A program made the position numbers and the translations under genes. A stretch of DNA of 33,372 nt from Methanocellales archaeon (GTDB lineage: Archaea > Halobacteriota > JAWCLZ01): NCBI GenBank assembly GCA_038850285.1, contig JAWCMA010000008.1, forward strand, positions 1 through 33,372, written 5' to 3'. The notes under the pieces were generated by a model, which saw only the letters and a program-made list of their open reading frames with translations, did no database searches and was not told where the DNA came from. Position 1 is the stretch's first letter. Every line of letters starts with the position of its first letter. Below, one piece after another: positions 3,549 through 24,071 of the stretch.

Positions 3549-4532
3549 TTAGCAAGGTGAAAATGAGTTTTCTAACGCGCTTCTAAGGTTTAGGCAGTCT
3601 CCAGCTATCACTTGCTTTATCGATCCATCCTCGAGTTCTACAAGCAAGCTTCCATTCGATGCGATATCTCTTGCAATGCCAGTGAAATTCTCATTTTGGG
3701 TTTTAATTTGAACTTTTTCACCCAGAATGCTGGATAGCGCTCGCCATCGATTCAAAATCAAACTGGGATCTCGCTTGAAGAGGAAGTATTTCTCTTCAAG
3801 TTCAAGCAGTAGCTCTTGAACAAACTTTGCCCGCTCAATTACATTGCCAAGTTCTTTTTTAAGCGTTGTAGCGATTTTCTGTATCTCCATAGGCAAGTCA
3901 TTGTTGGCATTTATACCTATTCCCAGTATTGCATAGTCCACTGCTTCAACCTCAGCAGCCAATTCGAGTAAGATGCCGCAGACTTTTTTATCGCGAATCA
4001 TAACATCGTTAGGCCATTTAAGTTTAGCGTGCAGGCCAAGTTTATTAATAGCATTCGCAGCACCAACCCCTGCTGCTATAGCTAGTAAATGTGCATTACT
4101 CGGCAAGATCTCGGGACGGAGGATTACTGAGAGCCAGATTCCGCCTGGGGGAGAGGCCCAAGTTCTCCCAAGTCTGCCTCTTCCCATCGACTGGCTTTCA
4201 GCAAGTACAACCAGTCCCTCTGAAGCGCCTTTTTCTGCTAGCTCCTTTGCCACATCATTGGTTGAACTTACGCTTTGGAAATAGCTAAGTTCTCTGCCTA
4301 TGATCGCAGTTTTCAATCCAATTTTTATTTCCTCAGGTGTAATTAAATCCGGGCTTTTAAGGAGTCTATAGCCCTTTTTGGGCTTGGCTTCTATTTCATA
4401 TCCCATTTTTTTCAGGGATTTAATTTGTTTCCAGATTGCTGTTCTCGATACTTTTAAAGCGCGAGCTAGTTTTCCCCCGGAAACATATTTTCCCTGGCTT
4501 TGCTTTAACTCTTGAAGTATTTTTTCCTTCAT
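3549..4532 (-). CDS. birA: Bifunctional biotin-protein ligase/repressor (HTH + BPL + SH3-like)
   Basis: N-terminal HTH (SGGKLARALKVSRTAIWKQI); STN, Q..GRGRLGRTW, KWPND, KVCGIL, GIGIN and AGD motifs all intact. Confidence 0.95.
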   Translation of the reverse strand: MKEKILQELKQSQGKYVSGGKLARALKVSRTAIWKQIKSLKKMGYEIEAKPKKGYRLLKSPDLITPEEIKIGLKTAIIGRELSYFQSVSSTNDVAKELAEKGASEGLVVLAESQSMGRGRLGRTWASPPGGIWLSVILRPEILPSNAHLLAIAAGVGAANAINKLGLHAKLKWPNDVMIRDKKVCGILLELAAEVEAVDYAILGIGINANNDLPMEIQKIATTLKKELGNVIERAKFVQELLLELEEKYFLFKRDPSLILNRWRALSSILGEKVQIKTQNENFTGIARDIASNGSLLVELEDGSIKQVIAGDCLNLRSALENSFSPC

Positions 4533-6667
4533 TTCTTTCTCACGCTTAATATCTTACCTGCAATAATTTTTCTCTCAGTTTGATCCTGCAGCTTAAGTAC
4601 AAGACTGCCATTAGGATCGAGATCTATTGCTTCACCCTCTAAAATTTCCACTGGGGTTGATATCTTAGTTATTTTTCCATGTAGATAAGAAAGATGAATC
4701 CACTCGTGCAATATGGAATTGAAGCCTTCTTTTTGAACAGTTATATACTTCGCTTCAAGTTCCTCGAGCATTTTTCTAATCAATTCCTTTCTCGAGACTT
4801 GCTCTCCAAGTTCTTTTTTAAGTGAAGTTGCAGTTCGGCGCAGCCAGAGAGGAAATGAGGCTACATCGACATTTGCATTTATTCCAATACCAAGTATGAG
4901 GTATTTCAATTCATTTCGCTCGCTAACTGATTCAGCGAATATGCCTGCTATTTTCTTATCCTTGATCATTATATCGCTAGGCCATTTTATCTTCGCATCT
5001 AAGCCATAGAGTTTTTTAATAGTATTAGCCACAGCAACGCTGGCGAGGAGGTTGAACTTTGCTGCTTCTGCTGGAGGCAATTTCGGCGTCAAAATCACGC
5101 TCAGCCAGATTCCGCCAAATGGCGAGAGCCATACTTCGCCCATTTTAGCTCTAGCTTTATACTGTGTTTCAGCAATAACAGCTGTGCCTTCTCTCGCACC
5201 TTTTTCAATTAGTTCTCTAGCTAAAAGATTTGTGGATAAAACATCCTCAGTATAATATATCTCTCTGCCTATGAATTTTGTATTAAGATCGCTTTTGATC
5301 TCATTAGGATTGATTTTGGGCACATTTAAAATTCTCCTTTGAATGAAATTGGTATCAACCTCGCCTTTCATAAAAGCTGGATCGTGAATGATTGTTTTGT
5401 GTAGCGGGAGAGTTGTATGTATGCCTTCTATGATGAATTCATCGAGGGCTCTTTTCATTCGTTCAATTGCTTCATTTCGATCTTGGCCCCATACTATTAA
5501 TTTCGCGAGGAGTGAATCATAGTAATGTGGAATGGTATAGCCCGCATAGGCGCTACCCCTATCTACTCTAACCCAGGGTCCTCCTGGGAGTACATATTCA
5601 GTTATAGTGCCAAATGAAGGAGCGAAGTCTTTACTTGGGTCTTCAGCATTTATTCTGCATTCAATGGCGTGGCCTTGAAGATGTATATCTTCTTGATCGA
5701 AATCTAATGATTCTCCATAGGCAATTTTAATCTGCTGCTTCACTAAGTCTATTCCAGTGATCATCTCGGTTACAGGGTGCTCCACCTGTATTCTTGTATT
5801 CATTTCAATGAAGTAAGCATTCCCATGGTGATCCATCAAAAATTCCACGGTGCCTGCGCTTCTATATCCAGCTTCTTTAACTCCCTGAACCGCGATTTTA
5901 CCAAGCCTCTCTCCAAGCTCAGGCGTTATAGCTAAACTTGGTGCTTCTTCCAACAGTTTTTGATGTCTCCTTTGAATGGAGCACTCCCTTTCGCCTAGGT
6001 GAATTGTTTTGCCTTTATTATCCGCTAATATTTGAATTTCAATATGCCTTGGACTATCGAGGTATTTCTCAATGTATACGCTTCCATCGCCAAATGCTTT
6101 CTCAGCTGTTCTTTGAGCAGATTCAAAAGCTGGTTTAAATTCTGGCTCGCATTTCACGATACGCATGCCTATGCCGCCGCCACCTGCAGCTGCTTTTATT
6201 ATCACGGGATAGCCAATTGAATTAGCTATATCTAGAGCTCTATCAGGGTCTTTAATGCTATTCATGGTTCCAGGCAGCAAATTTGCACCTGCCTTTACCA
6301 TTAACCTCCTAGCCTCAAGTTTGTTGCCTAGTCTTCGAATGTTTTCCGGAGTAGGCCCTATGAAAACCAAGCCATTCTTCCAGCACATTTCAGCGAAATC
6401 TGCATTTTCCGCTAGAAATCCATATCCAGGATGAATTGCTTCTGCGTTTACCCTCAAAGCTGTGTCTATAAGTACTTGCATATTTAGATAGCTTTCCCTC
6501 GCGGGAGGTGCTCCAATGCAGTAAGCTTCATCTGCATAGGTAACGTGAAGCGACTCTCTATCTGCCTCTGAATAAACCCCGATGGTTTCAATTTCAAGCT
6601 CTTTGCAAGCTCGAATTACTCTAATTGCTACCTCGCCTCGATTGGCAATTAAGATTTTGTTGAACAT
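4529..6667 (-). CDS. accC: Biotin carboxylase (aa ~1-447) fused to a C-terminal biotin-protein-ligase-like domain (aa ~452-712)
   Basis: IANRGE, HPGYGFLAEN, GGGGIGM, ERECSIQRRHQK, EMNTRIQVEH and YDSLLAKL, then STN, GGIWLS, KWPSD, KIAGI and GIGINAN in one continuous frame. Confidence 0.92.
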   Translation of the reverse strand: MFNKILIANRGEVAIRVIRACKELEIETIGVYSEADRESLHVTYADEAYCIGAPPARESYLNMQVLIDTALRVNAEAIHPGYGFLAENADFAEMCWKNGLVFIGPTPENIRRLGNKLEARRLMVKAGANLLPGTMNSIKDPDRALDIANSIGYPVIIKAAAGGGGIGMRIVKCEPEFKPAFESAQRTAEKAFGDGSVYIEKYLDSPRHIEIQILADNKGKTIHLGERECSIQRRHQKLLEEAPSLAITPELGERLGKIAVQGVKEAGYRSAGTVEFLMDHHGNAYFIEMNTRIQVEHPVTEMITGIDLVKQQIKIAYGESLDFDQEDIHLQGHAIECRINAEDPSKDFAPSFGTITEYVLPGGPWVRVDRGSAYAGYTIPHYYDSLLAKLIVWGQDRNEAIERMKRALDEFIIEGIHTTLPLHKTIIHDPAFMKGEVDTNFIQRRILNVPKINPNEIKSDLNTKFIGREIYYTEDVLSTNLLARELIEKGAREGTAVIAETQYKARAKMGEVWLSPFGGIWLSVILTPKLPPAEAAKFNLLASVAVANTIKKLYGLDAKIKWPSDIMIKDKKIAGIFAESVSERNELKYLILGIGINANVDVASFPLWLRRTATSLKKELGEQVSRKELIRKMLEELEAKYITVQKEGFNSILHEWIHLSYLHGKITKISTPVEILEGEAIDLDPNGSLVLKLQDQTERKIIAGKILSVRKK

Positions 6668-6735
6668 TACTTTGGATAGTCATGCGCGAATAACCTAAAA
6701 ATATTTTTGGATAGAGATAGTCGATAAAATTACTC

Positions 6736-7167
6736 TTACTCTATAACTGCAAGTAAAGTATTGGGACTAACTGTTTGACCAACGGTTACGTGCACAGCTT
6801 TAACAACTCCAGCTCTATGGGAGCGAACATCGTTCTCCATCTTCATTGCTTCAATTATTGCAATAACATCTCCTTTTTTCACAACATCCCCAGCTTTAAC
6901 CCTTACCTGCACCACTGTACCCTGCATTGGGCTGAGAATTCCACCGTCCACTGGAGCTGTGCTTTCTTCAGCCTTTGGAGTTAGTTTTGCTTCTATCTTG
7001 GGAGGCTCTATTTTAGGAGGCTCCAGTTTGAGTGATTCAACTGGCTTTGGTGCTCCTACCTTTGGCGCACTCACTGCAGCTGATGGAGAGGGTGATATGC
7101 CCTCTTTGATCTCCTCAACTTTAACTTCATAGACCTTCCCGTTGACCTCGATCTTATATCTCTTCAT
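6736..7167 (-). CDS. Biotin carboxyl carrier protein (stand-alone)
   Basis: EAMKM biotinylation motif, SPMQG, Pro/Ala-rich linker, N-terminal YKIEVNGKVYEVKVEE hairpin. Confidence 0.95.
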   Translation of the reverse strand: MKRYKIEVNGKVYEVKVEEIKEGISPSPSAAVSAPKVGAPKPVESLKLEPPKIEPPKIEAKLTPKAEESTAPVDGGILSPMQGTVVQVRVKAGDVVKKGDVIAIIEAMKMENDVRSHRAGVVKAVHVTVGQTVSPNTLLAVIE

Positions 7168-7447
7168 CTGAAATCCCCCTCATAGCCTCTTGCCTCCCCG
7201 ATAAGCTCCAGCTTGAAACTGCTTTTGCAAGCATTTTTCTATCCCTTCTCAGGGGGGTCATTAAATTGCGTCTCCCAGCTAAACTCCATTTCCTTATAAT
7301 CAAAGGAGAGGGGATTGCCTCCTCGCTCTCTAGGTATGCTGAAATTGCTGCTGCAATGACTGCGATTTGCACTTCTACTTCTTCCTTAATTTCTTCTATC
7401 TTGACTTCGTGAATTTTTCCATCTATTTCTACTTTGAATCTCCTCAT
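7154..7447 (-). CDS. Small acyl-CoA carboxylase accessory subunit (epsilon/PccX-like), 97 aa
   Basis: AVIAAAISAYL helix and two W-S-L-x-GR motifs; lies between the carboxyltransferase and BCCP genes. Start moved to ATG 7447 just after the upstream stop. Confidence 0.7.
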   Translation of the reverse strand: MRRFKVEIDGKIHEVKIEEIKEEVEVQIAVIAAAISAYLESEEAIPSPLIIRKWSLAGRRNLMTPLRRDRKMLAKAVSSWSLSGRQEAMRGISDEEI

Positions 7448-7454
7448 TTTAACC

Positions 7455-9017
7455 CTATTGAGGCATATTGCTGTGTTTCTTCCTAGGTCTATCCTCTCGC
7501 TTTGTTGCAAGTATCCTCAGGGCACTTATCAGCACAGGTCTAGTATCCTGAGGCTCGATAACTCCATCGATGTAGAGCTTGGAAGCAGCATCATATGGGT
7601 TTGCGAATTTCTTTTTATAGTCCTCGATGAGTTTTTCTCTTAATGCCTCTGGATCTTTAGCTGCAGCTATTTCCTTTGCAAAAACAACATCAACAGCTCC
7701 ATCTGGTCCCATGACTGCGATCTCAGCGGTTGGATATGCAAATACGAAGTCCGCGCCTAGGTCTTTGCTGCACATAGCGAGGTAGCTGCCGCCATAGGCC
7801 TTTCTCAATACTAATGTAATTTTCGGCACAGTGGCCTCTGAATATGCGAAGAGCATTTTCGCTCCATGTCTAATTATACCAAGATATTCCTGCTGCACCC
7901 CTGGGAGATAGCCTGGTACGTCTACGAATTGAATTAGCGGTATATTGAAGCAGTCGCAGAATCTAATGAATCTCGAGCCTTTATCAGAGGAATCTACATC
8001 TAAGGAGCCGGCTAAAACCTTGGGCTGATTTGCAACGATGCCTATGGATCTGCCGTCTAAGCGGGCAAAGCCCACAACTATATTCCTCGCAAAGTTCTCT
8101 TTGATTTCAAAGAAATATCCATCGTCCACTACTCTCTTTATAACATCTCTGACATCATAGGATTTCTTGGGGTTAACAGGCACCATTTCATTCAAACTTG
8201 GATCGCGTCTATCCCAGGGATCACTTGTGGGCTTAATTGGCGGGTCTTCGAGGTTATTTGAAGGTAAAAAACTCAATAGTTCTTTGATCAATTGAAGGCA
8301 ATGCTCATCGTTGACTGCCACTAAATCGCAGAGTCCACTTTTAGTAGCGTGTACAGTTGCACCCCCAAGTGTTTCTGAGGTAACCTCCTCGCCAGTAACT
8401 GCTTTGATAACCTTTGGACCTGTGATATGGGCGTAGCTGAATTTATCAACCATGATGGTGAAATCCTGCAAAGCTGGGGAGTAAACCGCTCCTCCTGCAC
8501 AGGGTCCCATAAGTGCCGCGATCTGGGGTGTAACTCCAGAATAAATTGAGTTTCTATAGAAAATCTGACCATAACCAGCGAGTGCATCAACTCCCTCTTG
8601 AACTCTCGCACCCGCTGAATCGCATAATCCAATGACAGGCGCTCCTATTTTAGCGGCTAGGTCCATTACATCGCAGATTTTCTTAGCATGCGCAAGTCCA
8701 AGTGAGCCTCCTATCACCGTGAAATCTTGAGCAAATACGCAAACCACGCGGCCGTCTATGGTGCCATAGCCAGTTATAACTGCATCCGCTGGTGCTTCTC
8801 TCTTTTCCATGCCAAAATCGAAGCAGCGATGCCTTACTAGAGCCTCGAGCTCCACAAAGCTACCTGGGTCTAAAAGCTTTTGGATTCTCTCCCTCGCTGT
8901 GAGCCTTCCCCCTTTCTTCTGTTTCTCAATTTTCTCAGGACCACCCGCAGCCTTTACAGCCTCGAGTTTCTTTTTAAGATCAAGTATCAATGTTTGCATT
9001 TCCTCAGCGTTAGTCAT
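7455..9017 (-). CDS. pccB: Acyl-CoA (propionyl/acetyl-CoA) carboxylase carboxyltransferase subunit (PccB/MmdA family)
   Basis: TARERI..LLDPGSF, QDFTVIGGS, DSAGARVQEG, GPCAGGAVYSPA, VDVPGYLPG, RKAYGG and KKHSNMP. Substrate not determined. Confidence 0.9.
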   Translation of the reverse strand: MTNAEEMQTLILDLKKKLEAVKAAGGPEKIEKQKKGGRLTARERIQKLLDPGSFVELEALVRHRCFDFGMEKREAPADAVITGYGTIDGRVVCVFAQDFTVIGGSLGLAHAKKICDVMDLAAKIGAPVIGLCDSAGARVQEGVDALAGYGQIFYRNSIYSGVTPQIAALMGPCAGGAVYSPALQDFTIMVDKFSYAHITGPKVIKAVTGEEVTSETLGGATVHATKSGLCDLVAVNDEHCLQLIKELLSFLPSNNLEDPPIKPTSDPWDRRDPSLNEMVPVNPKKSYDVRDVIKRVVDDGYFFEIKENFARNIVVGFARLDGRSIGIVANQPKVLAGSLDVDSSDKGSRFIRFCDCFNIPLIQFVDVPGYLPGVQQEYLGIIRHGAKMLFAYSEATVPKITLVLRKAYGGSYLAMCSKDLGADFVFAYPTAEIAVMGPDGAVDVVFAKEIAAAKDPEALREKLIEDYKKKFANPYDAASKLYIDGVIEPQDTRPVLISALRILATKREDRPRKKHSNMPQ

Positions 9018-9122
9018 CCTTCACCACGACCTTCTCTTTTTCCTTTCTATTATATAATTATATCAATTTTGTTTAATGATATTCGATATCAATCCTCAGC
9101 ACTGGAAATGCTAAAGATAGAG

Positions 9123-14433: not shown

Positions 14434-14802
14434 ATGGCTGTAGCAGATGCGTATATTTCAATTGGCATATTTATCATCGCAGCCTTAGTTCTGCCGATTG
14501 TAATGCTTATTATAGGCTGGCTATTTGAATTAAGGCCAAGCAATCCCACACCCACCAAATTACTTCCCTTCGAATGCGGCTCAATACCAATCGGCCCCAC
14601 TCCCTCTCGCTTCGGTATCTCTTACTATATGTATGGCCTCCTCCTAGTAATTTTTGATGTTGAAACAGTTTTCCTCTACCCATGGGCTATTTCATTTTTG
14701 AAGATAGGTTTGATGGCAATAATTGAAATGTTCATCTTCATTGGCGTTCTAGTAATAGGTTTAATATACGCTTGGAAAAAGGGGGCGCTGGAATGGGTGT
14801 GA
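14434..14802 (+). CDS. fpoA: Fpo/Nuo subunit A
   Basis: FECG, FDVETVFLYPWA, WKKGALEW; three TM helices. Confidence 0.93.
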   Translation: MAVADAYISIGIFIIAALVLPIVMLIIGWLFELRPSNPTPTKLLPFECGSIPIGPTPSRFGISYYMYGLLLVIFDVETVFLYPWAISFLKIGLMAIIEMFIFIGVLVIGLIYAWKKGALEWV

Positions 14803-15284
14803 TCTTCACAACCTTGAAAGATCTCCTCAACTGGGGCAGAAAGAACTCCCTATGGCCATTCATTCAACCAATGGGATGCTGTGGCATAGAAATTTTGAAT
14901 ATAGGTAACCCAGTTTTCGATACCGATAGATATGGAATCGTACCCAGAGATTCCCCTAGACAGTGCGATGTGATGGTAATAAGCGGTTGGATAACTTGGA
15001 AACTGCTCCCTAGAATACAGCGAGTTTGGGAGCAAATGCCGGAGCCAAAATATGTTATAGCAATGGGAGAATGTGCAATTAGCGGCGGGCCTCAATGGGA
15101 TTCCTATAATATAGTGGATAATATAGGCGATTACTTCCCAATCGATGTATACGTCCCAGGCTGCCCTCCTAGGCCGGATGCTCTATTTGAAGGATATCTA
15201 AAGCTTCAGGAGAAAATAGCGAAAGAAGGAGAACTCAATGGTTTGCCTAGGAAAGGAAAGCACGCGCGCAAGGTGGAGGTATGA
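14793..15284 (+). CDS. fpoB: Fpo/Nuo subunit B (N2 cluster)
   Basis: GCCGIE, SPRQCD, MGECAISGG and PGCPP. Start placed at ATG 14793. Confidence 0.93.
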   Translation: MGVIFTTLKDLLNWGRKNSLWPFIQPMGCCGIEILNIGNPVFDTDRYGIVPRDSPRQCDVMVISGWITWKLLPRIQRVWEQMPEPKYVIAMGECAISGGPQWDSYNIVDNIGDYFPIDVYVPGCPPRPDALFEGYLKLQEKIAKEGELNGLPRKGKHARKVEV

Positions 15285-15760
15285 TTACCTTGACCGAGCT
15301 AGAGAAGGAAAATCAAATTTTAGAGGCAATTAAAAATCAATTCCCCGAGGATATAATCGAAGCCAAGGTTCAAAGGAAAAATCGAGTGCTCCTTAAAATC
15401 AAAAAAGAAAAACTATTCGAGATCTGTAAGTTTGCTAGTGAAAAACTCGAACTTGAACACCTTTCAAGCATAGCTGGCGTTGACTATGGCAGTGAATTTG
15501 AAGTGGTACATCACATCGCAACTTACAAGCACCCTGTCATATTAATTTTAAAAACTCGCATACCTGCTCAAGAACCAAGGATTCCCTCAGTTGTATCCAT
15601 CTGGTGGAATGCCAACTGGTATGAGCGCGAGACCTACGACCTCCTCGGCATAGTCTTCGAAGGCCACCCAAGACTTGAGCGCTTGCTGCTTCCGCAGGAG
15701 TGGAAAGTGCATCCCTTGAGGAAAGAATGGAAATTACCTAAGAAGGCGGTGGAAAAATGA
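15281..15760 (+). CDS. fpoC: Fpo/Nuo subunit C
   Basis: ANWYERETYDLLGIVFEGHP and HPLRK. Confidence 0.93.
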   Translation: MITLTELEKENQILEAIKNQFPEDIIEAKVQRKNRVLLKIKKEKLFEICKFASEKLELEHLSSIAGVDYGSEFEVVHHIATYKHPVILILKTRIPAQEPRIPSVVSIWWNANWYERETYDLLGIVFEGHPRLERLLLPQEWKVHPLRKEWKLPKKAVEK

Positions 15761-16872
15761 AAGCAATAGATAAAAGCCCGAGGGAAACAATGGTACTGCA
15801 GCTAGGACCACATTATCCCTCTCAGCCAGGCCCATATTTACTCAAAGTCACTCTAGACCACGAAACCATATTAGATGCAGACCTTGAGTTTGGCTTCAAC
15901 CACCGGGGATTTGAAAAACTCGCTGAAAATAGAACCTATCTCCAATTTCTTCCAATAACAGATAGAATCTGCTACGTGGCAGCGCTTTCCCACAACGATG
16001 TATACTGCAGAGCTGTGGAAGAACTCATGAAGATCGAAGTACCTGAGAGAGCTAAATATATTAGAACTCTTGCCCTTGAACTTCAAAGAATTGCCTCACA
16101 CACAATTTGCTTCTCCGAAGGCTATACCCTCGAGCAGGGATTCCTCTCAATGATGATCTACATCCTTAGAGAGCGCGAGAAAATAATGAGCTTGATGGAG
16201 GAACTCTGCGGAAGCAGACTTAACATGACCTACTTCCGATTTGGAGGGGTTAGACTCGATCTCCCCAAGGGATTTAAAGAGAGAGCAATGCCCATTCTCG
16301 ATGAAGTGGATAGAAACATAGCTGAATATGATAGAATCCTGGAAACCGACTCGGTATTCCTCGCTAGAAATGAAAATGTAGGGGTGCTTAAAACCGAGGA
16401 TGCAATTAGATTTGGAGTAACCGGTCCTGTTCTACGAGGCTCAAATGTGAACTATGACCTGCGCAAAGCAGATCCCTATGATGCCTATGATAAAGTGGAT
16501 TTTGAAGTTTGCTATGAAAAAGGCTGCGACAATCTAGCTAGATTTAGGGTTAGAATTCGCGAGATACACGAGAGCATTAAAATCATAAAACAGTGCTTGA
16601 AAGACATGCCTCAGGGTTCAATTCAAGCCAAGCTACCCAAGGTAATAAGGCCACCCCCCGGCGAGGTATATGCGAGAATCGAGGACCCCAGAGGGGAAAT
16701 GAGCATGTATTTAGTAAGCGATGGCGGGCTCAATCCATATCGCCTTGCAATTAGAGGCCCTGCATTTAGAAATAGCCAAGCACTTCCACCTTTACTCCTA
16801 GGCTATAAATACGCGGACATAGTTGCCATAGCAGGCAGCACCGATGGATGCACCAGCGAGGTGGATAGATAA
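15757..16872 (+). CDS. fpoD: Fpo/Nuo subunit D
   Basis: HRGFEK, DRICY, GGVR, EDPRGE; C-terminal GSTDGCTSEVDR. No CxxC NiFe ligands. Confidence 0.93.
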   Translation: MKAIDKSPRETMVLQLGPHYPSQPGPYLLKVTLDHETILDADLEFGFNHRGFEKLAENRTYLQFLPITDRICYVAALSHNDVYCRAVEELMKIEVPERAKYIRTLALELQRIASHTICFSEGYTLEQGFLSMMIYILREREKIMSLMEELCGSRLNMTYFRFGGVRLDLPKGFKERAMPILDEVDRNIAEYDRILETDSVFLARNENVGVLKTEDAIRFGVTGPVLRGSNVNYDLRKADPYDAYDKVDFEVCYEKGCDNLARFRVRIREIHESIKIIKQCLKDMPQGSIQAKLPKVIRPPPGEVYARIEDPRGEMSMYLVSDGGLNPYRLAIRGPAFRNSQALPPLLLGYKYADIVAIAGSTDGCTSEVDR

Positions 16873-16883
16873 GGAGGAGTAAT

Positions 16884-17945
16884 ATGGAGATCAATGATTT
16901 AATTGCAACTTATTACTCAATTCAGCAAGCTATAGCAGGAAAAGATATCTTTGCACTGCTAACTTTAATCCAAGAAAATCCACTCCTTCGCGGCATAATT
17001 GGTTGCGCTATAGCAATTGCAATTGTAATGACCTTTGTAATTATAGGCATATGGATGGAGAGGAAGGTACTCGCAGACTTTCAAACTAGATATGGACCTT
17101 GTAGAGTTGGACCATATGGTATTCTCCAGCTAATTGCAGATATGATAAAGCTAATCACCAAAGAGGATATAATACCTGCCAAGGCAGACTTCTATGGATA
17201 CTGGCTTGGTCCAATGATGATGATGGGCGTGCCAATGGTTGCCTTCGCCGCAATACCAGCTGCTCGAGAATTAATTGTAGCAGACCTCGATATAGGCATA
17301 CTATATATAGAGGCAGTTTCATCCGTGGCAGTTATAGGAGCCTTCCTCACAGGCTGGGCGCCTAGGAATAAATTCAGCTTAATCGCTGCTCTCAGAGGAA
17401 TGGCGCAGATGATCAGCTATGAAATTCCCCTTGCGCTTTCAATAATAGCAGTTGTAATAATGGCCGGTTCAATGTCCACGGTGAGCATTGCTGAAGCTCA
17501 ATCTAAGGTTTGGTTCATTATACCTCAATTCTTGGGCTTCCTCGTATTCTACGCTTCATTTCTAGCAGAAGCCGGGAGAATACCATTTGACTTAAGAGAA
17601 GCTGAGCAGGAACTAGCAGGTGGCTGGGGAGTTGAGTACACTGGGATGAGATTTGGCTTAGGGATGGTTGGAGAGTATGCACATTTAACCCTTGGTTCAA
17701 TGCTCGTGGTCATACTCTTCTTCGGGGGATGGCAGGGTCCAGTGATAATTCACCCAATTCTCAGCGGTGCAGCTTGGTTCTTCCTCAAAACCATAATTGT
17801 AATCTGGGCTACAATGTGGGTAAGAGCAGCTTTACCGAGGTATAGAATAGATCAGCTTTTGAACATTGGCTGGAAAATTTTACTCCCCCTAGGCCTTGCA
17901 AATTTAGCATATACTACCCTCTTAGTATATATAATTGGGGTGTGA
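16884..17945 (+). CDS. fpoH: Fpo/Nuo subunit H
   Basis: ERKV...R.GP.RVGPYG, SYE, RIPFDLREAEQEL and PRYRIDQ. Confidence 0.94.
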   Translation: MEINDLIATYYSIQQAIAGKDIFALLTLIQENPLLRGIIGCAIAIAIVMTFVIIGIWMERKVLADFQTRYGPCRVGPYGILQLIADMIKLITKEDIIPAKADFYGYWLGPMMMMGVPMVAFAAIPAARELIVADLDIGILYIEAVSSVAVIGAFLTGWAPRNKFSLIAALRGMAQMISYEIPLALSIIAVVIMAGSMSTVSIAEAQSKVWFIIPQFLGFLVFYASFLAEAGRIPFDLREAEQELAGGWGVEYTGMRFGLGMVGEYAHLTLGSMLVVILFFGGWQGPVIIHPILSGAAWFFLKTIIVIWATMWVRAALPRYRIDQLLNIGWKILLPLGLANLAYTTLLVYIIGV

Positions 17946-17950
17946 ATGCA

Positions 17951-18367
17951 ATGGTATTGAAAAATTTGATTTATACCCTCAAGCAGTTCTTCACCCCTGA
18001 GGTAACTATAAACTATCCAGATGTGAAATATATTCCATATCCTAGATTTAGAGCTAGACATTATTTGAACCTAGATGAATGCGTGGGCTGCGGAGTTTGC
18101 GCTAAGGTATGCCCAAATAAATGCATAGAAATGGTGCAGTATAAAGAAAGAAAGCATCCCCAGATCGACCTCGGGAGGTGTATGTTCTGCGCTTTATGCA
18201 TAGATTCCTGCCCCACGAATGCGCTTTTAAACACAACTGACTATGAACTTGCAGAGTATACTAGAGAAGCATTAATTTACCCCCCTGAGAGATTGGGCAA
18301 GCCGCCTAAGAAGCCATTCTACATCGCTGATAAAGAAGGCAACATCGTTGAACCGGAGGAGGCATAG
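17951..18367 (+). CDS. fpoI: Fpo/Nuo subunit I (2x[4Fe-4S])
   Basis: CVGCGVCAKVCP and CMFCALCIDSCP. Start ATG 17951 (alternatively GTG 17942). Confidence 0.93.
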   Translation: MVLKNLIYTLKQFFTPEVTINYPDVKYIPYPRFRARHYLNLDECVGCGVCAKVCPNKCIEMVQYKERKHPQIDLGRCMFCALCIDSCPTNALLNTTDYELAEYTREALIYPPERLGKPPKKPFYIADKEGNIVEPEEA

Positions 18368-18369
18368 AA

Positions 18370-18618
18370 ATGCTTGACCTGCTGCTATTCCTAGCACTTG
18401 CCGCAATAATTGTACTTGCGGCAATAGGCGTGGTTTGGACTAGATTAGTTGTCCATAGCGCGATATACCTAGCTCTCACATTCATCTGCGTAGCTGGTCT
18501 ATATGTTTTATTAAATGCAGAACTCTTAGCAGCAATACAGGTATTGATATATGTAGGTGCAATCGTGGTTTTGATAATCTTTGGCATAATGCTCACAGGC
18601 GGAGGAGAGGAGGAATAA
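18370..18618 (+). CDS. fpoJ: Fpo subunit J, N-terminal part (J1)
   Basis: HSAIYL, LNAELLAAIQVLIYVGAIVVL. Confidence 0.9.
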   Translation: MLDLLLFLALAAIIVLAAIGVVWTRLVVHSAIYLALTFICVAGLYVLLNAELLAAIQVLIYVGAIVVLIIFGIMLTGGGEEE

Positions 18619-18620
18619 AA

Positions 18621-18869
18621 ATGGGATTCTGGACTACTTTCTTTAAATTCATTGTAGCAGTGATTTTCATCTCATTGCTCTCCATAACTCTAGCTAGCGC
18701 GCCCTGGAGCGATAAGCCAATGGAAGATGTGGAAAAAGTTACTTATTCCATTGGGGAGATGCTCTTCCAGTTTGGGAGATTCGTTGTTCCCTTTGAAATT
18801 ATTTCATTGGTTTTAATAGCCGCATTAATAGGTGCAATATTCATAGCCATTAAGGAGGCTGCAGTATGA
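18621..18869 (+). CDS. fpoJ: Fpo subunit J, C-terminal part (J2)
   Basis: IGEMLF...VPFEIISLVLIAALIGAI matches the NuoJ C-terminus. Confidence 0.88.
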   Translation: MGFWTTFFKFIVAVIFISLLSITLASAPWSDKPMEDVEKVTYSIGEMLFQFGRFVVPFEIISLVLIAALIGAIFIAIKEAAV

Positions 18870-19174
18870 TTCCCCTAGTTGCATATTTAATCCTCGCAGC
18901 AATAGTCTTTGGAATTGGAGCTTTTGGATTCATCACGAGTAAAAATGTGATAAGGATACTCATGAGCGTGGAACTCATGCTTAATTCAGCAAACATTAAC
19001 TTCGTAGCTTTTTCAAGCTATTCCATACCCTTCGATATCTCTGGACAGATCTTCGCTTTATTCACCATAGCACTAGCTGCGGCTGAATCTGCGGTGGGAA
19101 TAGCAATCTTAATACTGCTCTATAGAACGCATGGCACTGTTAAAATCCAAGACATTAATGTATTGAGGTGGTAA
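18866..19174 (+). CDS. fpoK: Fpo/Nuo subunit K
   Basis: LMSVELMLNSANIN, GQIFALF, AAAESAVG. Confidence 0.93.
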   Translation: MIPLVAYLILAAIVFGIGAFGFITSKNVIRILMSVELMLNSANINFVAFSSYSIPFDISGQIFALFTIALAAAESAVGIAILILLYRTHGTVKIQDINVLRW

Positions 19175-19176
19175 AA

Positions 19177-21090
19177 ATGACTGGCATAATTGAATATTCC
19201 TGGCTCATCCCAGTGCTGCCAATAATTGCATTTGCCATAATAGCCTTCTTCGGAAGGAAGATCTACGAGGGTGGAGCCCCAGTGGGTATACTTTTCACAG
19301 GTGCTTCCTTTGTAATCTCCCTAGGCACACTGCTAGAGGTACTCCATAGAACAGAGCCATATACGCGCTCAATGGAGTGGTTCATGGGTATAAAAGTAGG
19401 CATCCTCATAGACCCAGTGGGTGCAATAATGCTAGTTATCGTCTCCTTCATCTCACTGCTGGTGCAGATCTACTCCATGGGCTATATGCATGGCGACCCA
19501 GGTTTGCCGAGGTATTACGCGGAAATGAATCTATTCACCACCTCCATGCTTGGCTTCGCAATTTCCGATAGCATTCTCTTTGCATTCATAAACTGGGAAC
19601 TCGTGGGCCTTTGCTCCTATCTTTTAATTGGATTCTGGTATAGAAAGCACTCTGCAGCTGCCGCTGGAAAAAAGGCATTCTTAGTAACCCGAGTGGGAGA
19701 TGTATTCTTCTTCCTAGGCATATTAATCCTATTCACCAACCTCCATACCTTCACCTACCTAGAGCTATTTGAAAAAGCTGAGATGGGGGAAATAGCACCG
19801 CCACTTCTAACCCTTGCAATGCTGGGTATATTCGGTGGAGCAGTGGGCAAATCCGCTCAATTCCCACTTCACGTTTGGCTACCGGATGCAATGGAGGGCC
19901 CCACTACAGTTAGCTGCTTGATTCACGCTGCCACAATGGTTAAAGCCGGCGTTTTCCTAGTAGCTAGAACCTATCCCCTCTTCCACCTTGCACCCCAAGC
20001 ATTAATGGTGGTTGCCTATATCGGAGGCTTCACGGCTTTCCTAGCTGCATCACTTGCCGTGGTGGTAACGGATATAAAGCGCATCGTGGCATATTCAACA
20101 ATTTCCCAGCTTGGATACATGATGCTAGCCCTTGGAGCAGGGGGTTATATAGCTGGGATGTTCCATCTTATGAATCATTCCTTCTTTAAAGCACTGTTAT
20201 TCCTAGCCGCAGGCAGCGTGATTCACGCTGTGGGGACCAATGACATAAGGCAAATGGGTGGATTGCTGAAGTATATGAAGATCACCGCAGTAACCATGCT
20301 ATTCGGCGTGCTCTCAGTCTCAGGAATACCTCCTTTCTCAGGCTTCTTCAGCAAAGATGAAGTATTGCTCAGCGCTTATAACTACTACCACGCCACTAAC
20401 CATTTACTGCCCCTTTTATTCGGCCTTATAACTGCTTTCCTCACTGCATTCTACATGTTCAGAGCTTGGTTCCTAGCATTCACAGGTAAACATAGAGGGG
20501 GGCAGCTTGTGAAGCATTTGCCAGCTGAAGCGCATGCCACTGCTCACAATGGCGGGGAACCTGAGGAACCTAAGCATGCTATTCATGAGTCCCCTTGGGT
20601 TATGACAATACCATTGATAATCCTAGCAATCCTAGCTCTAACTTCAGGCTGGACTTGGGAGGGCTATAGACACGTGGTTACTCTTCCATTCCTCCATGAG
20701 GAAGAACCTGCGCCGGTGATAATGTATACCTCAGTTATCCTAGCTATTTTAGGAATTGCAGTAGCTGCCTTACTCTACTATAAATTCACAATTTCAAGCA
20801 CTAGGATAGTTAATGCTTTAAAACCCATTCATACTCTGCTTATGAACAAATACTATTTAGATCACCTCTACTATGGATTTGCTGAAAAAATAGTGTATGG
20901 AGTTGCTAGACTCGCGGAGTTCTTCGATCTCTATGGCATCGACGGCGTGGTCAATGCGATCACCGCAGTTATAGTGCGAGGAGCTACTAGACTGCGGAAA
21001 GTTCAAACCGGTAGAGTGCAGGGCTATGCAAGTGCAGTTATTATAGGGGTAATAATACTTTTAATAATTGCACTCTTAGGAGGGCGTTGA
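19177..21090 (+). CDS. fpoL: Fpo/Nuo subunit L (antiporter-like)
   Basis: WELVGLCSYLLIGFW, KSAQFPLHVWLPDAMEGPT, AYSTISQLG, HSFFKALLFL and QTGRVQ. ATG 19177 follows GAGGTG. Confidence 0.95.
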   Translation: MTGIIEYSWLIPVLPIIAFAIIAFFGRKIYEGGAPVGILFTGASFVISLGTLLEVLHRTEPYTRSMEWFMGIKVGILIDPVGAIMLVIVSFISLLVQIYSMGYMHGDPGLPRYYAEMNLFTTSMLGFAISDSILFAFINWELVGLCSYLLIGFWYRKHSAAAAGKKAFLVTRVGDVFFFLGILILFTNLHTFTYLELFEKAEMGEIAPPLLTLAMLGIFGGAVGKSAQFPLHVWLPDAMEGPTTVSCLIHAATMVKAGVFLVARTYPLFHLAPQALMVVAYIGGFTAFLAASLAVVVTDIKRIVAYSTISQLGYMMLALGAGGYIAGMFHLMNHSFFKALLFLAAGSVIHAVGTNDIRQMGGLLKYMKITAVTMLFGVLSVSGIPPFSGFFSKDEVLLSAYNYYHATNHLLPLLFGLITAFLTAFYMFRAWFLAFTGKHRGGQLVKHLPAEAHATAHNGGEPEEPKHAIHESPWVMTIPLIILAILALTSGWTWEGYRHVVTLPFLHEEEPAPVIMYTSVILAILGIAVAALLYYKFTISSTRIVNALKPIHTLLMNKYYLDHLYYGFAEKIVYGVARLAEFFDLYGIDGVVNAITAVIVRGATRLRKVQTGRVQGYASAVIIGVIILLIIALLGGR

Positions 21091-21091
21091 A

Positions 21092-22591
21092 ATGGCATTT
21101 CCCTATCTTTCAATTCTACTTGCAGTTCCATTGATCGGTGCAATCCTAGTATTCCTAGTCAAGAGCGAGAAGCTCATCAAGGGTATTTCAATAGCAGCTA
21201 GTTTCATAGACCTAGTAATTGCTTTAGCTGCCTATGCAAGTTTTGATTCAAGTTACACTGGCTATCAATTCCTAGAAGGCCCCTATACTTGGATCCGCGA
21301 GGCAGGCATAGCATATCTAGTTGGAGTAGATGGATTGAGCTTCCCGCTGGTTATACTTACCACCCTAATAGCATTCGTTGCTATTGTTTATTCCTGGGGC
21401 GAGAAACATAGAGTCAGGGAGTTCTTTGGCCTGCTATTACTTATGGAAGTGGGCCTGCTTGGAGTATTTCTATCTCTGGATTTCTTCATGTTCTACATCT
21501 TCTGGGAAGTAGTGCTAATTCCAATGTATTTCTTAATCGCAATCTGGGGCGGGCCAAGGAAGGACTATGCTTCCATTAAGTTCTTCATTTATACCCACGT
21601 AGCTGGAGTGGTAATGCTGCTGGGAATCTTAGCGATGTATTTCCACGCTGCAAGTGTGCGTGGGTATTACACCTTCAGCATGCTTGAGATCTCAACTGTT
21701 CAATTCCCCCTTGCGTTTCAATCAATCGTATTCCTAGCGCTCTTCTTTGGATTTGGCGTGAAAATGCCGGTCTTCCCATTCCACACTTGGCTACCAGATG
21801 CACATGTCGAAGCACCCACCCCTGGGAGTGTATATCTAGCTGCAGTTATGCTGAAAATGGGTGGCTATGGTTTAATACGCATCGCTGTAATGATGCTGCC
21901 CGAGGGAGCGAAGCAGTATACTTGGCTGCTCATAGCCATAGGCGTGCTTAGCATGGTATATGGAGCCATGATCGCCCTTGCAGCTGAGGATTTGAAGAGA
22001 ATGATCGCGCTTTCAAGCATTAGCCACATGGGCTATGTTACTCTGGGTATTGCCACTTTAAACCTCTATGGTTTAAGTGGAGCAATGTTCCAGATGTTTG
22101 CTCATGGAATCATATCTGGAGCCCTATTCATGATAGCTGGCTCGGTTCATCACATCGCAGGCACTAGGTTAATAAACTACTTAGGCGGCCTAGCAGGTAA
22201 ATTGCCACTGCTTGGCACAGTGACGATGGTTAGCTTCCTCGCATCGGTGGGTGTTCCAAGCATGGCTGGCTTCATAGCTGAGTTCTTGGTATTCACAGGT
22301 GCCTTTAAAGCCTTCGTAACTGAGTCAAGTACCTATGCACCTTGGATCTACTTCAGCTTGGTAACTATAGCCTTAACAGCGGCATATTATCTCTGGGCGA
22401 TGCAGCGGGCGATGTTTGGTCCATATAATGAAAAACTGGGAGCACATCCCCACGATCTACCCCTGCATGAATTCATTCCTCTCGCAATACTCGTGGCTTT
22501 GATGCTCGCCTTTGGAATATGGCCTGCACCGCTGATGAACATGATCAATACATATGCACATCAAATGATATTGCTTGCAGGAGGGATCTAA
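21092..22591 (+). CDS. fpoM: Fpo/Nuo subunit M (antiporter-like)
   Basis: FWEVVLIPMY, KMPVFPFHTWLPDAHVEAPT, LKMGGYG, SSISHMG. Confidence 0.95.
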   Translation: MAFPYLSILLAVPLIGAILVFLVKSEKLIKGISIAASFIDLVIALAAYASFDSSYTGYQFLEGPYTWIREAGIAYLVGVDGLSFPLVILTTLIAFVAIVYSWGEKHRVREFFGLLLLMEVGLLGVFLSLDFFMFYIFWEVVLIPMYFLIAIWGGPRKDYASIKFFIYTHVAGVVMLLGILAMYFHAASVRGYYTFSMLEISTVQFPLAFQSIVFLALFFGFGVKMPVFPFHTWLPDAHVEAPTPGSVYLAAVMLKMGGYGLIRIAVMMLPEGAKQYTWLLIAIGVLSMVYGAMIALAAEDLKRMIALSSISHMGYVTLGIATLNLYGLSGAMFQMFAHGIISGALFMIAGSVHHIAGTRLINYLGGLAGKLPLLGTVTMVSFLASVGVPSMAGFIAEFLVFTGAFKAFVTESSTYAPWIYFSLVTIALTAAYYLWAMQRAMFGPYNEKLGAHPHDLPLHEFIPLAILVALMLAFGIWPAPLMNMINTYAHQMILLAGGI

Positions 22592-22592
22592 A

Positions 22593-24071
22593 TTGGACTA
22601 TGCTATAGTGGCTCCTGAATTGTTACTTGTGATATTTGCATTGATAATACCCCTCATAGGTCTATTTGCAGTTAAAGATAATGCTAAAGTACTTGGTGGG
22701 CTGGGGTTAATAGCATTGCTAGCTGCATTTGCACTCACAATGCAGTTAATAGGCGTGGATCAAACTTTATTTGAAGTATACAAAGTTGACTATTACTCTC
22801 TATTCTTCAAAATGGTTTTTCTAACCGTTGGCATACTTGTAGCGATAGCTTCAATACTATATGTCGGGGAAGAGCCGCATCAAGCTGAGTATTATTCCCT
22901 GCTATTACTCGCAACAGTGGGAATGATGGTGGTGGCATCAGCGAGTGATTTAATCACCTTATTCGTGGGACTTGAACTCGCTAGTCTAAGTACTTATGCA
23001 CTTGCAGCTTTTGTCAAGCGCGATCCTCAGTGCAGTGAAGCTGCAATGAAATACTTCTTAATAGGGGCATTATCCTCGGCTTTAGCGCTTTATGGCATCT
23101 CACTGATATATGGAATCACAGGCACAACTAATTTAATCCTCGCGGCTAAGTCGCAAGCTATACTCGCTTTTGAGCCAGTTGGAGTTATTGCAGCGGTTTT
23201 CTTGATCGCTGGCTTTGGCTTTAAAATGGCAGCAGTGCCATTTCACATGTGGGCTCCAGATACCTATCACGGCGCGCCTACAACGGTCTCTGCATTTCTC
23301 GCTGCTGGGTCTAAAAAAATGGGCTTTGCAGCTGCATTTAAGATATTCATCATAGCCTTAATTGCAATTAAGGCAAACTGGACTTTGCTATTTGGAATAA
23401 TTGCGGCAATCACCATGACTCTAGGCAATGTGGTGGCAGTTGCCCAGACAAGCATAAAGCGCATGCTAGCTTATTCCAGCATTGGGCAAGCGGGCTATAT
23501 AATGGTTGGCCTAGCGGTGGCAACTCCCCTTGGAATTGCCTCTGGCTTGCTCCAGGCCTTTGCACACGGTATAATGAAAGCCGGAGCATTTATTGCAGCT
23601 GCAGCTGTAACTTATATGCTGGTGAGGGACTATGGATCGAAGTATAGAGCTCAAACAGATGGCGGGGAAATCTCAACTGATGATATTGAAGCATACGCTG
23701 GCTTGGGCAAGCGAGCGCCTATAACAGCTTTCTGCATGCTCATATTCCTGCTCTCGCTAGCCGGGGTGCCTCCTTTATTTGGCTTCGTCAGCAAGTTCTG
23801 GATAGTTATGGCAGCAATTCAAGCAGGCGGCTATGCCATATGGCTAGCGGTAATACTGGTATTGAACAGCGCGCTCTCGGTTTATTATTACGTGAGGGTA
23901 ATTAGATATATGTATGTAGTACCCGCTAGAGAAGCTGCGGTTAAGGGAGGGGAGCCAGCTGCGTTTACAGTGCCACTTGTAATCGCTACCATAGCACTCT
24001 TTGCCCTTGGGCTATTTCCTGATAGAATTGTTGATTTTGCAATGAATGCCGCTAGAGCAATAATTCCCTAG
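22593..24071 (+). CDS. fpoN: Fpo/Nuo subunit N (antiporter-like)
   Basis: EAAMKYF, FKMAAVPFHMWAPDTY, KRMLAYSSI, SLAGVPP. TTG 22593 follows GGAGGG. Confidence 0.95.
   Translation: MDYAIVAPELLLVIFALIIPLIGLFAVKDNAKVLGGLGLIALLAAFALTMQLIGVDQTLFEVYKVDYYSLFFKMVFLTVGILVAIASILYVGEEPHQAEYYSLLLLATVGMMVVASASDLITLFVGLELASLSTYALAAFVKRDPQCSEAAMKYFLIGALSSALALYGISLIYGITGTTNLILAAKSQAILAFEPVGVIAAVFLIAGFGFKMAAVPFHMWAPDTYHGAPTTVSAFLAAGSKKMGFAAAFKIFIIALIAIKANWTLLFGIIAAITMTLGNVVAVAQTSIKRMLAYSSIGQAGYIMVGLAVATPLGIASGLLQAFAHGIMKAGAFIAAAAVTYMLVRDYGSKYRAQTDGGEISTDDIEAYAGLGKRAPITAFCMLIFLLSLAGVPPLFGFVSKFWIVMAAIQAGGYAIWLAVILVLNSALSVYYYVRVIRYMYVVPAREAAVKGGEPAAFTVPLVIATIALFALGLFPDRIVDFAMNAARAIIP

Follow-up and report, generated by a model that had tools for sequence, protein, structure and literature searches.

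A biotin carboxylase fused to a biotin protein ligase module without the helix-turn-helix domain, in carboxylase gene clusters of two archaeal lineages

To our knowledge, all biotin-dependent carboxylases need a separate ligase for the loading of their cofactor. Methanosarcina barkeri reportedly possesses a two-subunit pyruvate carboxylase, composed of PycA and PycB, and bpl/birA is said to lie next to pycA in methanogens. In the bacterial two-subunit pyruvate carboxylases, a hydrophobic Ala-rich helix at the C-terminus of the alpha subunit forms the core of a BT-like domain, anchors both subunits and is essential for assembly, and the archaeal two-subunit enzymes are stated to differ from them (PMC5059739). 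Among the ligases, the biotin protein ligase (BPL) of Pyrococcus horikoshii (PDB 1wnl, 2dxu, 2ejg) lacks a helix-turn-helix (HTH) domain, and in Francisella BplA is described as the main ligase and BirA as the regulator (PMC4462617). The closest record of the architecture reported here is a 2024 catalogue of archaeal fusions, which mentions a Methanocella PycA fused to a biotin ligase, lists PycA-BirA in four Methanocellales assemblies and, in the supplement, places pycA and birA as neighbours in many archaea (PMC11237513). There, the PycA-BirA/Bpl composite is a catalogue entry, free of residue, partner or function analysis. According to the earlier note on this DNA, the architecture was not known to be characterised; the literature searched yielded neither a functional study of the fusion nor a studied enzyme that carries its own biotin loader, while the architecture itself was already on record in that catalogue. 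A self-loading carboxylase, if true, would be a new way of organising cofactor attachment.

The window, meaning the whole stretch of DNA analysed, comprises 33,372 nucleotides of contig JAWCMA010000008.1 from a Methanocellales archaeon (GCA_038850285.1). The features of the cluster are as follows.

3549-4532, minus strand: canonical group II BirA (HTH, BPL and C-terminal domain by Pfam), 327 aa.
4529-6667, minus strand: fusion gene, biotin carboxylase (BC) plus HTH-less BPL, 712 aa, a called open reading frame.
4529-5257, minus strand: BPL catalytic and SH3-like C-terminal domain of the fusion, residues 471-712 and stop (TIGR00121, 194 bits; AF2; Foldseek; dN/dS).
4952-4954, minus strand: Lys572, equivalent of P. 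horikoshii BPL K111, retained.
5135-5155, minus strand: altered biotin/adenylate loop, A505-R-A-K-M-G-E511, in place of GRGRxGR by alignment columns.
5258-5332, minus strand: fusion junction, residues 446-470 (alignments A1 and A3; contig bridging).
5333-6667, minus strand: BC part of the fusion, PycA-type, residues 1-445 (three BC Pfam domains; TIGR00514 above cut-off).
6736-7167, minus strand: free biotin carboxyl carrier protein (BCCP), 143 aa, Biotin_lipoyl 73.9 bits.
7154-7447, minus strand: small subunit, 97 aa; the open frame runs 7154-7510, with the ATG at 7447 as the better start.
7455-9017, minus strand: carboxyltransferase (CT) of the propionyl-CoA-carboxylase-beta/12S type, 520 aa, Pfam Carboxyl_trans 661 bits.
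9077-9091, no strand: perfect palindrome TGATATCGAATATCA, 5' of the operon, candidate BirA operator.

Read along the minus strand, the called frames follow the order given in the earlier note, from carboxyltransferase through the small open frame, the BCCP and the 712-aa frame to HTH-BirA, and the stop of the fusion overlaps the birA start as ATGA in the sequence, also as it had described. The 712-aa protein matches Biotin_carb_N (residues 1-110), CPSase_L_D2 (116-322) and Biotin_carb_C (336-443), all three families (PF00289, PF02786, PF02785) scoring far above their cut-offs, which makes it a biotin carboxylase of the AccC/PycA kind; accC (TIGR00514) reaches 666.1 bits on residues 1-444 against a cut-off of 626.5. 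It continues into BPL_LplA_LipB (485-597; 59.7 bits, cut-off 21) and BPL_C (663-706; 23.2 bits, cut-off 21), while birA_ligase (TIGR00121) gives 194 bits on residues 470-707 against 83.1, so that both the catalytic fold and the SH3-like C-terminal domain of a BPL are present. A winged HTH had no Pfam match in the fused ligase domain, which lacks this feature of a group II BirA. The AF2 model of residues 452-712 has a pLDDT of 96.3 and a pTM of 0.93, and Foldseek aligned the fused domain with P. horikoshii BPL at TM-scores of 0.82-0.94, with an rmsd of 1.7-2.3 A and 31-33% identity. The full-length AF2 model, built from 8 sequences, is uninformative on domain packing (pLDDT 65.9, pTM 0.49, linker 411-467 below 50). 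The claim of a full BPL catalytic and SH3-like unit holds for the fold and both domains, with the exception of the biotin loop, which is non-canonical (ARAKMGE).

The junction lies just past the place where the HTH sits in a free BirA (alignment A3), and the BC passes there directly into the segment that follows the HTH of free BirA, I.P.EIK..L.T (alignments A1 and A3), a segment with 50% identity between the two fused lineages. A stop or frameshift at this point was named in the earlier note as a possible refutation, but contigs from two studies cross it without indels: a contig of run X4 spans 5189-5623 with 0 differences, and an 11.6-kb contig of run X5, from the other study, spans 4929-5700 with 40 substitutions and no gaps. 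Across four runs, no indels or joints were reported; no RNA run was listed as holding the stretch. A PycA-type BC and a BPL module lacking the HTH are genuinely fused in the 712-aa gene, and the fusion is old.

All four genomes of the window's class carry the fusion, as do 12 of the 15 genomes of the Methanocella-type class; the other three of the latter gave no match to a PycA-type BC. The ligase domain is accordingly retained in all 16 genomes with this BC type over two classes, one copy (G050) being split. Both fused lineages share the same junction, and the BC tree of 24 domains unites the nine fused ones in a single clade (UFBoot 81, SH-aLRT 86), with the window's BC sister to the Methanocella-type fused BCs (81/86), which argues for one old fusion and against a recent local event. 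The fusion most likely arose once, judging from these sequences, from an adjacent pycA-birA pair of related methanogen-type archaea, and an in-frame loss would have taken away the C-terminal tail of PycA and the HTH of BirA; the pycA-birA adjacency said to occur in methanogens is the likely precursor. By junction and BC tree, the composite of the 2024 catalogue is the same architecture and the same event (PMC11237513). The local duplication of the ligase domain suggested in the earlier note was not borne out, since the fused and free domains of the window's lineage do not group in the BPL tree, whose deep nodes are unresolved, and the AU test rejects neither the fused domain with the neighbouring BirA as one clade (p 0.54) nor all fused domains as one clade (p 0.63).

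Separate, adjacent and often abutting BC and BirA genes are found in distant archaea (Methanoperedens, Methanimicrococcus and family f2), so that the two-gene arrangement, which had been named as a possible refutation, exists among more distant archaea and not among close relatives. Apparent fusions in f2, with open frames of 848-865 aa carrying BC and BPL, were set aside because the frames are separate (BC 493-507 aa, BirA 322-325 aa). In an architecture survey, 1 of the top 150 representatives was fused, and a search for longer proteins recovered BC-BPL only in these two lineages (6/13 matches), a search that is not exhaustive, since it missed the known 722-723-aa proteins of loci L007-L009.

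The partners of the fused BC differ between the two lineages. In the Methanocella-type family f9, the gene upstream of the fusion is PycB, with an HMGL-type CT and a C-terminal BCCP, consistent with the PycA-like character of the fused BC and with the two-subunit pyruvate carboxylase. In contrast, a PycB orthologue was found in none of the four genomes of the window's family, where the HMGL-type matches of G000-G003 are only 23-26% identical, against 100% for the self-match of G011. The CT of the window scores 844 bits against TIGR01117, under the cut-off of 998.8, and its closest solved chains are the propionyl-CoA carboxylase (PCC) beta chain 1vrg (705 bits) and the transcarboxylase 12S chain 1on3; of the 41 genomes searched, all four from the window's family have it, but none of the three from f9 and none of the four from f2. 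With a PF01039 CT, a BC and a BCCP in one operon, the set of a PCC-type acyl-CoA carboxylase is complete and its CT is of the same type as in PCC and related enzymes (1vrg, 3n6r, 1on3). Unlike in PCC, the BC and BCCP of the window are separate and of PycA/PycB ancestry, and the BC is without a BT domain. The BCCP is the single PF00364 match in a 93%-complete genome, and shares 58% identity in its biotinyl domain with the PycB C-terminus of f9.

The small subunit, conserved in G001-G003 at 52-81% identity and present in only 4 of the 41 genomes searched, matched nothing in Pfam, NCBIfam or PDB, and the Atlas gave no usable lead. It is a real gene, for which the epsilon-like label of the earlier note is at most putative, given that it falls into no Pfam or NCBIfam family. 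Its N-terminal hairpin motif recurs at the N-terminus of the BCCP; behind it come an Ala-rich helix (QIAVIAAAISAYLE) and two repeats of the form W..[AS]GR..[LA]M. By its sequence it may be the provider of the helix and may perform the anchoring. Free archaeal PycA ends in a C-terminal tail with an Ala-rich helix (KKVAAITAAVHAY-like), which the fused proteins lack (alignment A3), unlike the alpha subunit of the two-subunit pyruvate carboxylases; the match of the fusion to NF006406 takes in only positions 1-443 of 499, and its 713.5 falls short of the cut-off of 739. Compared with the Methanocellales composite, the window's lineage keeps BirA immediately downstream, and has exchanged PycB for a PCC-type CT, a free BCCP and a new 97-aa helix subunit. 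New here is also the cost of the fusion, namely the HTH for BirA and the Ala-rich C-terminal helix for PycA, along with the selection, the kept catalytic Lys and the loop change in the fused domain and the PycB partner swap. Since the lost helix is essential in the bacterial enzymes, the fusion could show how archaeal carboxylases hold together and how a BC changes partners.

The fused ligase domain and that of the neighbouring BirA are 46% identical (120/259, E 3e-71), and the shared motifs listed in the earlier note are present in both. Compared by alignment with 149 representative BPLs, the loop that reads GRGRLGR in the adjacent BirA is ARAKMGE in 5/5 fused sequences of the window's lineage, which thus lack GRGRxGR. 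Each of its two Gly columns, now Ala, is G in 147/149 representatives, the column changed from R to K is R in 135/149, and the E at the last Arg column is seen in 0/149. With respect to P. horikoshii BPL, of which the fused domain has the fold and keeps the equivalents of K111, D104, STN and Q, the residues G45, G47, R48, R51 and N103 are replaced by A, A, K, E and S, and the domain is joined to a BC. In f9, the loop of the fused domains is longer by one inserted residue, and N or S stands at the KWPND lysine (0/149 representatives). Taking the KWPND lysine as catalytic would make the Methanocella-type domain a dead ligase; this was ruled out by indexing the position against the P. horikoshii K111A/K111G variants in the PDB, which places the catalytic Lys just before [IV][AC]GI. 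Because that Lys (Lys572 in the window) is invariant in 8 aligned fused proteins, 149/149 representatives and the 99 sequences of alignment A6, the dead ligase was dropped.

Among 33 columns at least 90% conserved in the 149 representatives, the fused domain retains 28 in the window's lineage and 30 in f9, including the S and T of STN, the Q, the K111-equivalent Lys and GxGxNxN; the biotin-contacting S, T and Q and Lys572 are therefore all kept. PDB titles record P. horikoshii BPL R48A and R51A crystallised with biotinyl-5'-AMP, R48A also with BCCP, so that the Arg changes need not be fatal. In E. coli BirA, G115S and R118G lower the affinity for biotinyl-AMP, according to PMC9120650, citing Kwon and Beckett 2000. 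Purifying selection acts on the fused ligase domain, with dN/dS of 0.08-0.15 in the window's genus and 0.08-0.16 in f9, against 0.12-0.16 and 0.09-0.21 for the ligase part of free BirA.

The BirA beside the fusion is intact, as had been claimed, with HTH_11 at 70.7 bits, BPL at 78.8 bits and BPL_C at 43.3 bits; it carries GRGRLGR and KWPND and deviates at 0 of the 33 conserved columns, with TIGR00122 at 61.5, below its cut-off of 70. A free BirA match was found in every fusion genome (4/4 in the window's class, 12/12 in the Methanocella-type class). Throughout the window's class (4/4 genomes) it adjoins the fusion, and in f9 it lies elsewhere in the genome, beside a putative BioY-type gene, labelled by sequence reading and not by family search. 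The palindrome at 9077-9091 is the sole exact copy in the genome and recurs upstream of the same operon in L023 (conserved) and L024 (one mismatch); as a candidate operator unique to this operon, it suggests that BirA may autoregulate its own operon.

With these observations, the preferred reading, held tentatively at slightly under an even chance, is that the fused module is a carboxylase-resident element that would bind BCCP and probably biotinylate it. Placed on the BC subunit, the module would catch the carrier protein of its own complex by the biotinyl domain and biotinylate it on the spot, while the separate HTH-BirA would keep the role of biotin-sensing repressor and act as a general or back-up ligase. 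The data themselves show the architecture and where it occurs, what was lost at the junction, the conserved residues, the purifying selection and the fold, while BCCP binding, ligase activity and the split of labour with BirA are inferred; the division of labour proposed in the earlier note remains a reasonable reading, given purifying selection on both domains and the constant retention of BirA. The two ligases of Francisella novicida may serve as a precedent, as this species likewise combines an HTH-less ligase with an HTH-BirA and one biotinylated protein, and the window's genome has one biotinyl domain. BplA is a free protein of demonstrated high activity, whereas the window's HTH-less copy is known from its sequence, fused to its client enzyme and with an odd loop (PMC4462617). 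On the face of it, ligase activity of the fused domain is not needed, since an intact BirA is always present, and tight binding would be costly, because a BCCP held in the ligase pocket is unable to move back and forth from the BC site to the CT site. In the window's hot-spring lineage the loop that holds biotinyl-AMP is changed, so that the ligase there is probably leaky or less active, and docking may be its dominant role.

The main rival, plausible though less likely, is a non-catalytic tether, in which the BPL fold would replace the lost PycA helix and, through its natural BPL-BCCP or BPL-BPL surfaces, hold BC to the BCCP-bearing part or dimerise BC, leaving all biotinylation to BirA. In its favour, the fused proteins are without the Ala-rich helix, BirA is always kept, and family-invariant positions are altered more often in the fused domains (5 and 3 of 33 columns) than in the free BirAs of those genomes (0 and 2). 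A pure scaffold, however, would have no need of the STN, Q, Lys572 and GxGxNxN that are preserved across two classes; moreover, the 97-aa protein of the window's lineage already has an Ala-rich helix and may anchor, and PMC5059739 itself sets the archaeal two-subunit enzymes apart from the bacterial ones. More speculative, and rather doubtful, is an exaptation in which the BPL fold became an assembly element linking BC and carrier after the helix was lost, allowing BC to switch from PycB to an unrelated PCC-type CT; the module would then be a pseudo-ligase dock, or a leaky ligase freeing biotinyl-AMP near its own BCCP in a BioID-like manner.

An improbable reading makes the domain a regulatory module, either a sensor of biotin or biotinyl-AMP or a partner of BirA at the BPL dimer surface, which would couple the amount of carboxylase to BirA repression or to BC activity. 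The translational coupling of birA to the fusion by ATGA in the window's lineage, the unique palindrome 5' of the operon and the conserved biotin-pocket residues speak for it, but BirA lies away from the fusion in f9, so tight co-expression is not general. Very improbable is a redundant second ligase, a neutral accident of neighbouring genes, kept alive by the need for the attached BC. With pycA beside birA in many archaea, fusions are easily made, and the altered loop suggests relaxed catalytic constraint; yet the dN/dS of the fused domain, 0.08-0.16, is as low as that of the free BirA domain or lower, and 260 residues that served no purpose should have decayed or vanished rather than be retained in 16/16 genomes over two classes. 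An assembly or frameshift artefact joining two genes deserves practically no credence, being already refuted by the bridging contigs of two studies and by the recurrence of this open frame in named MAGs and independent genomes. The fusion is also present in a public MAG named Methanocella sp., and because there are Methanocella species in culture, the question is directly testable.

The carboxylase operon is encoded by five close-packed genes on the minus strand of 3549-9017, as read from the open reading frames of the window:

7455-9017, minus strand, carboxyltransferase (CT), 520 aa
7154-7510, minus strand, small open reading frame, 97 aa when read from its conserved start, the ATG at 7447
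6736-7167, minus strand, biotin carboxyl carrier protein (BCCP), 143 aa
4529-6667, minus strand, fusion, 712 aa
3549-4532, minus strand, HTH-BirA, 327 aa

The fusion carries three biotin carboxylase (BC) domains in residues 1-443, followed by BPL_LplA_LipB (485-597) and BPL_C (663-706), all above their Pfam cut-offs, and it exceeds two NCBIfam cut-offs, those of accC TIGR00514 (666 bits vs 626.5) and birA_ligase TIGR00121 (194 bits vs 83.1). Its stop overlaps the BirA start in ATGA. These data confirm the earlier note's reading of a BC fused to a biotin protein ligase (BPL) beside a second, intact BirA; the two ligase domains, which it had described as aligning closely, are 46% identical. The genome contains only one biotinyl domain and two BPL domains.

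To describe the state of the fused ligase domain, it was aligned with 149 representative BPLs, in which 33 columns are at least 90% conserved. The fused domains of the window's family (f1) depart at five of these columns and those of a second, Methanocella-type family (f9) at three, while the free BirAs depart at none (f1) and two (f9). The f1 loop reads A-R-A-K-M-G-E in place of GRGRxGR: each glycine column that is Ala here is G in 147/149 representatives, the column with the R-to-K change is R in 135/149, and the last Arg column, here E, is E in 0/149. In Pyrococcus horikoshii BPL numbering, the changes are G45A, G47A, R48K, R51E, and N103S, with the equivalents of D104 and K111 retained. 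In f9, GRxGR is retained with one extra residue inserted, and the KWPND lysine is replaced by N or S, a state found in 0/149 representatives. E. coli G115S and R118G are described as binding biotinyl-AMP more loosely (PMC9120650), while P. horikoshii R48A and R51A were, by their PDB entry titles, crystallised with biotinyl-AMP; the f1 loop changes therefore point to an enzyme that is weakened or leaky but need not be dead. Modelled alone (99 sequences), the domain reached a pLDDT of 96.3 and matched solved BPLs with TM-scores of 0.82-0.94; a model of the full-length fusion was of low quality (pLDDT 65.9, pTM 0.49). Because the pocket residues and the lysine are kept across two classes, the sequences argue for continued binding of biotin, biotinyl-AMP, or the biotinyl-lysine hairpin of BCCP. 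The best reading, held tentatively, is that of a carboxylase-resident module that would capture and biotinylate its own BCCP, leaving BirA as the predicted repressor and general ligase. This division is likened to that of Francisella BplA and BirA, between which ligase and repressor roles are described as split (PMC4462617).

The fusion lacks both the BirA HTH and the PycA C-terminal tail of the two-subunit pyruvate carboxylase (PycA/PycB); free archaeal PycAs have about 50 additional residues, including a short Ala-rich helix. In bacterial two-subunit pyruvate carboxylases such a helix anchors the subunits to each other (PMC5059739). The main rival is a non-catalytic tether compensating for the lost helix, which we consider less likely than the best reading. 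Additionally, the 97-aa protein (7154-7447, minus strand, between CT and BCCP) may supply in trans the helix missing from the fused BC. Its first ~25 residues repeat the N-terminal hairpin motif of BCCP, followed by an Ala-rich helix resembling the end of free archaeal PycA and two W..[AS]GR..[LA]M repeats; it matches no known family and is specific to f1 (4/41 genomes searched). The partners have also been replaced. PycB is the gene upstream of the fusion in f9, and no PycB orthologue was found in the 4/4 f1 genomes, where the operon carboxyltransferase is of the PCC-beta/12S type, a type found in 0/3 f9 genomes and 0/4 genomes of a more distant family (f2) among the relatives searched. The biotinyl domain of the free f1 BCCP is 58% identical to the f9 PycB C-terminus. 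CT (7455-9017) is 97-98% identical within the genus vs 89-91% for the BC domain of the fusion (4529-6667), so that CT is either much more conserved than its BC partner or recently exchanged. The passages of PMC5059739 on archaeal enzymes describe them as differing from bacterial ones, with the architecture not established.

A regulatory link of the fused domain to BirA is improbable. A perfect palindrome, TGATATCGAATATCA, lies at 9077-9091, just upstream of the TATA-like box preceding the operon, with an additional TGATAT half-site 3' of it. The genome holds no other exact copy, and two related MAG contigs conserve the palindrome, which is a candidate BirA operator; if so, the carboxylase operon, including birA itself, would be biotin-regulated. 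In the window's genome (1.28 Mb, 93% complete), BioY had no match and BioB none above cut-off. In f9, BirA adjoins a gene that reads as a putative BioY type.

Mere redundancy of the fused ligase domain is more improbable still. Within the window's genus its dN/dS is 0.08-0.15 (free BirA ligase domain, 0.12-0.16), and within f9 it is 0.08-0.16 (free BirA ligase domain, 0.09-0.21); BC gives 0.06-0.10. Pairs with G003, one of the f1 genomes, were saturated for the fusion. The domain is under purifying selection.

An artefact has a negligible probability, since contigs from two studies cross the junction without indels and the same uninterrupted frame is found repeatedly in independent genomes; the fusion is no artefact. 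Contigs of four public runs from these studies were compared over 4300-5700, and no indels or joints were reported in them. One contig from run X4 shows 0 differences over 5189-5623, and an 11.6-kb contig from run X5, of the other study, 40 substitutions and 0 gaps over 4929-5700. Further contigs bridge the overlap of fusion and birA.

The fusion followed by BirA was identified in 4/4 genomes of the window's class, which comprises four genomes only, and two matching contigs are titled "Methanocellales archaeon" at NCBI. Junction-spanning matches occur in 12/15 genomes of the class of f9; the other three (70%, 72%, and 99% complete) have no match to the fusion and none to a PycA-type BC. G050, one of the 12 matching genomes of this Methanocella-type class, has the gene split into two pieces that overlap at about residue 632-633 (G050:C12:664646-666804), through either a frameshift or a sequencing error in the SH3-like domain. 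The locus from the MAG Methanocella sp. PtaU1.Bin125 (L086) is nested among f9 proteins. Full-length matches were found in 7/41 sampled relatives, BC being a separate gene in the remaining BC-bearing genomes; in Methanoperedens, Methanimicrococcus, and f2, BC and BirA are distinct genes, adjacent or abutting. Among the best 150 representatives from 1.84 billion proteins, one was fused, and a search for longer BPL-containing proteins gave 13 matches, six of them BC-BPL and all six from the f1/f9 lineages. The architecture was not found outside these lineages in either set, both searches being non-exhaustive, as the latter missed known f9 proteins of loci L007-L009. Its other matches were different fusions (radical SAM, NadC, HAD, CoaX, and others).

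The junction is homologous between f1 and f9: BC ends at about residue 445 and leads directly into the post-HTH segment of free BirA, with identities of 60-62% (BC), 50% (junction), and 39-42% (BPL). A BC tree built from 24 proteins places all nine fused proteins in a single clade, at a support (81/86) that is short of decisive. The deep nodes of the BPL-domain tree are not resolved. AU tests accept one clade of all fused domains (p 0.63, with a likelihood better than the free tree). The local duplication proposed in the earlier note is compatible with the BPL tree, a clade of f1 fused domains and the neighbouring BirA being accepted too (p 0.54), but is not shown by it. The favoured origin is a single, old fusion event between adjacent pycA and birA genes.

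The architecture itself is already on record: PMC11237513 mentions Methanocella PycA fused to biotin ligase, which it ascribes to the genes being often neighbours, and records the composite for four Methanocellales assemblies in a supplement. A full-text search of literature outside subscription papers found no paper with a functional test or analysis of the fusion. New here are the helix loss, altered loop, selection data, partner swap, and small subunit in the f1 lineage.

Further BPL fusions were seen in the metagenomic proteins P0157, P0158, P0159, P0006, and P0162, with a B12-binding radical SAM domain, PF02677, NadC, HAD phosphatase, and CoaX as partners; the radical SAM fusion (697 aa) has a canonical-looking loop. 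Elsewhere in the window, where the family matches include no NADH-input-module family, a complex-I-like (Fpo/Nuo-type) gene row occupies 14434-24071 on the plus strand, comprising chain 3, 20-kDa, 30-kDa, and 49-kDa subunits, NADHdh, 2x[4Fe-4S], 4L, and three antiporter-like subunits.
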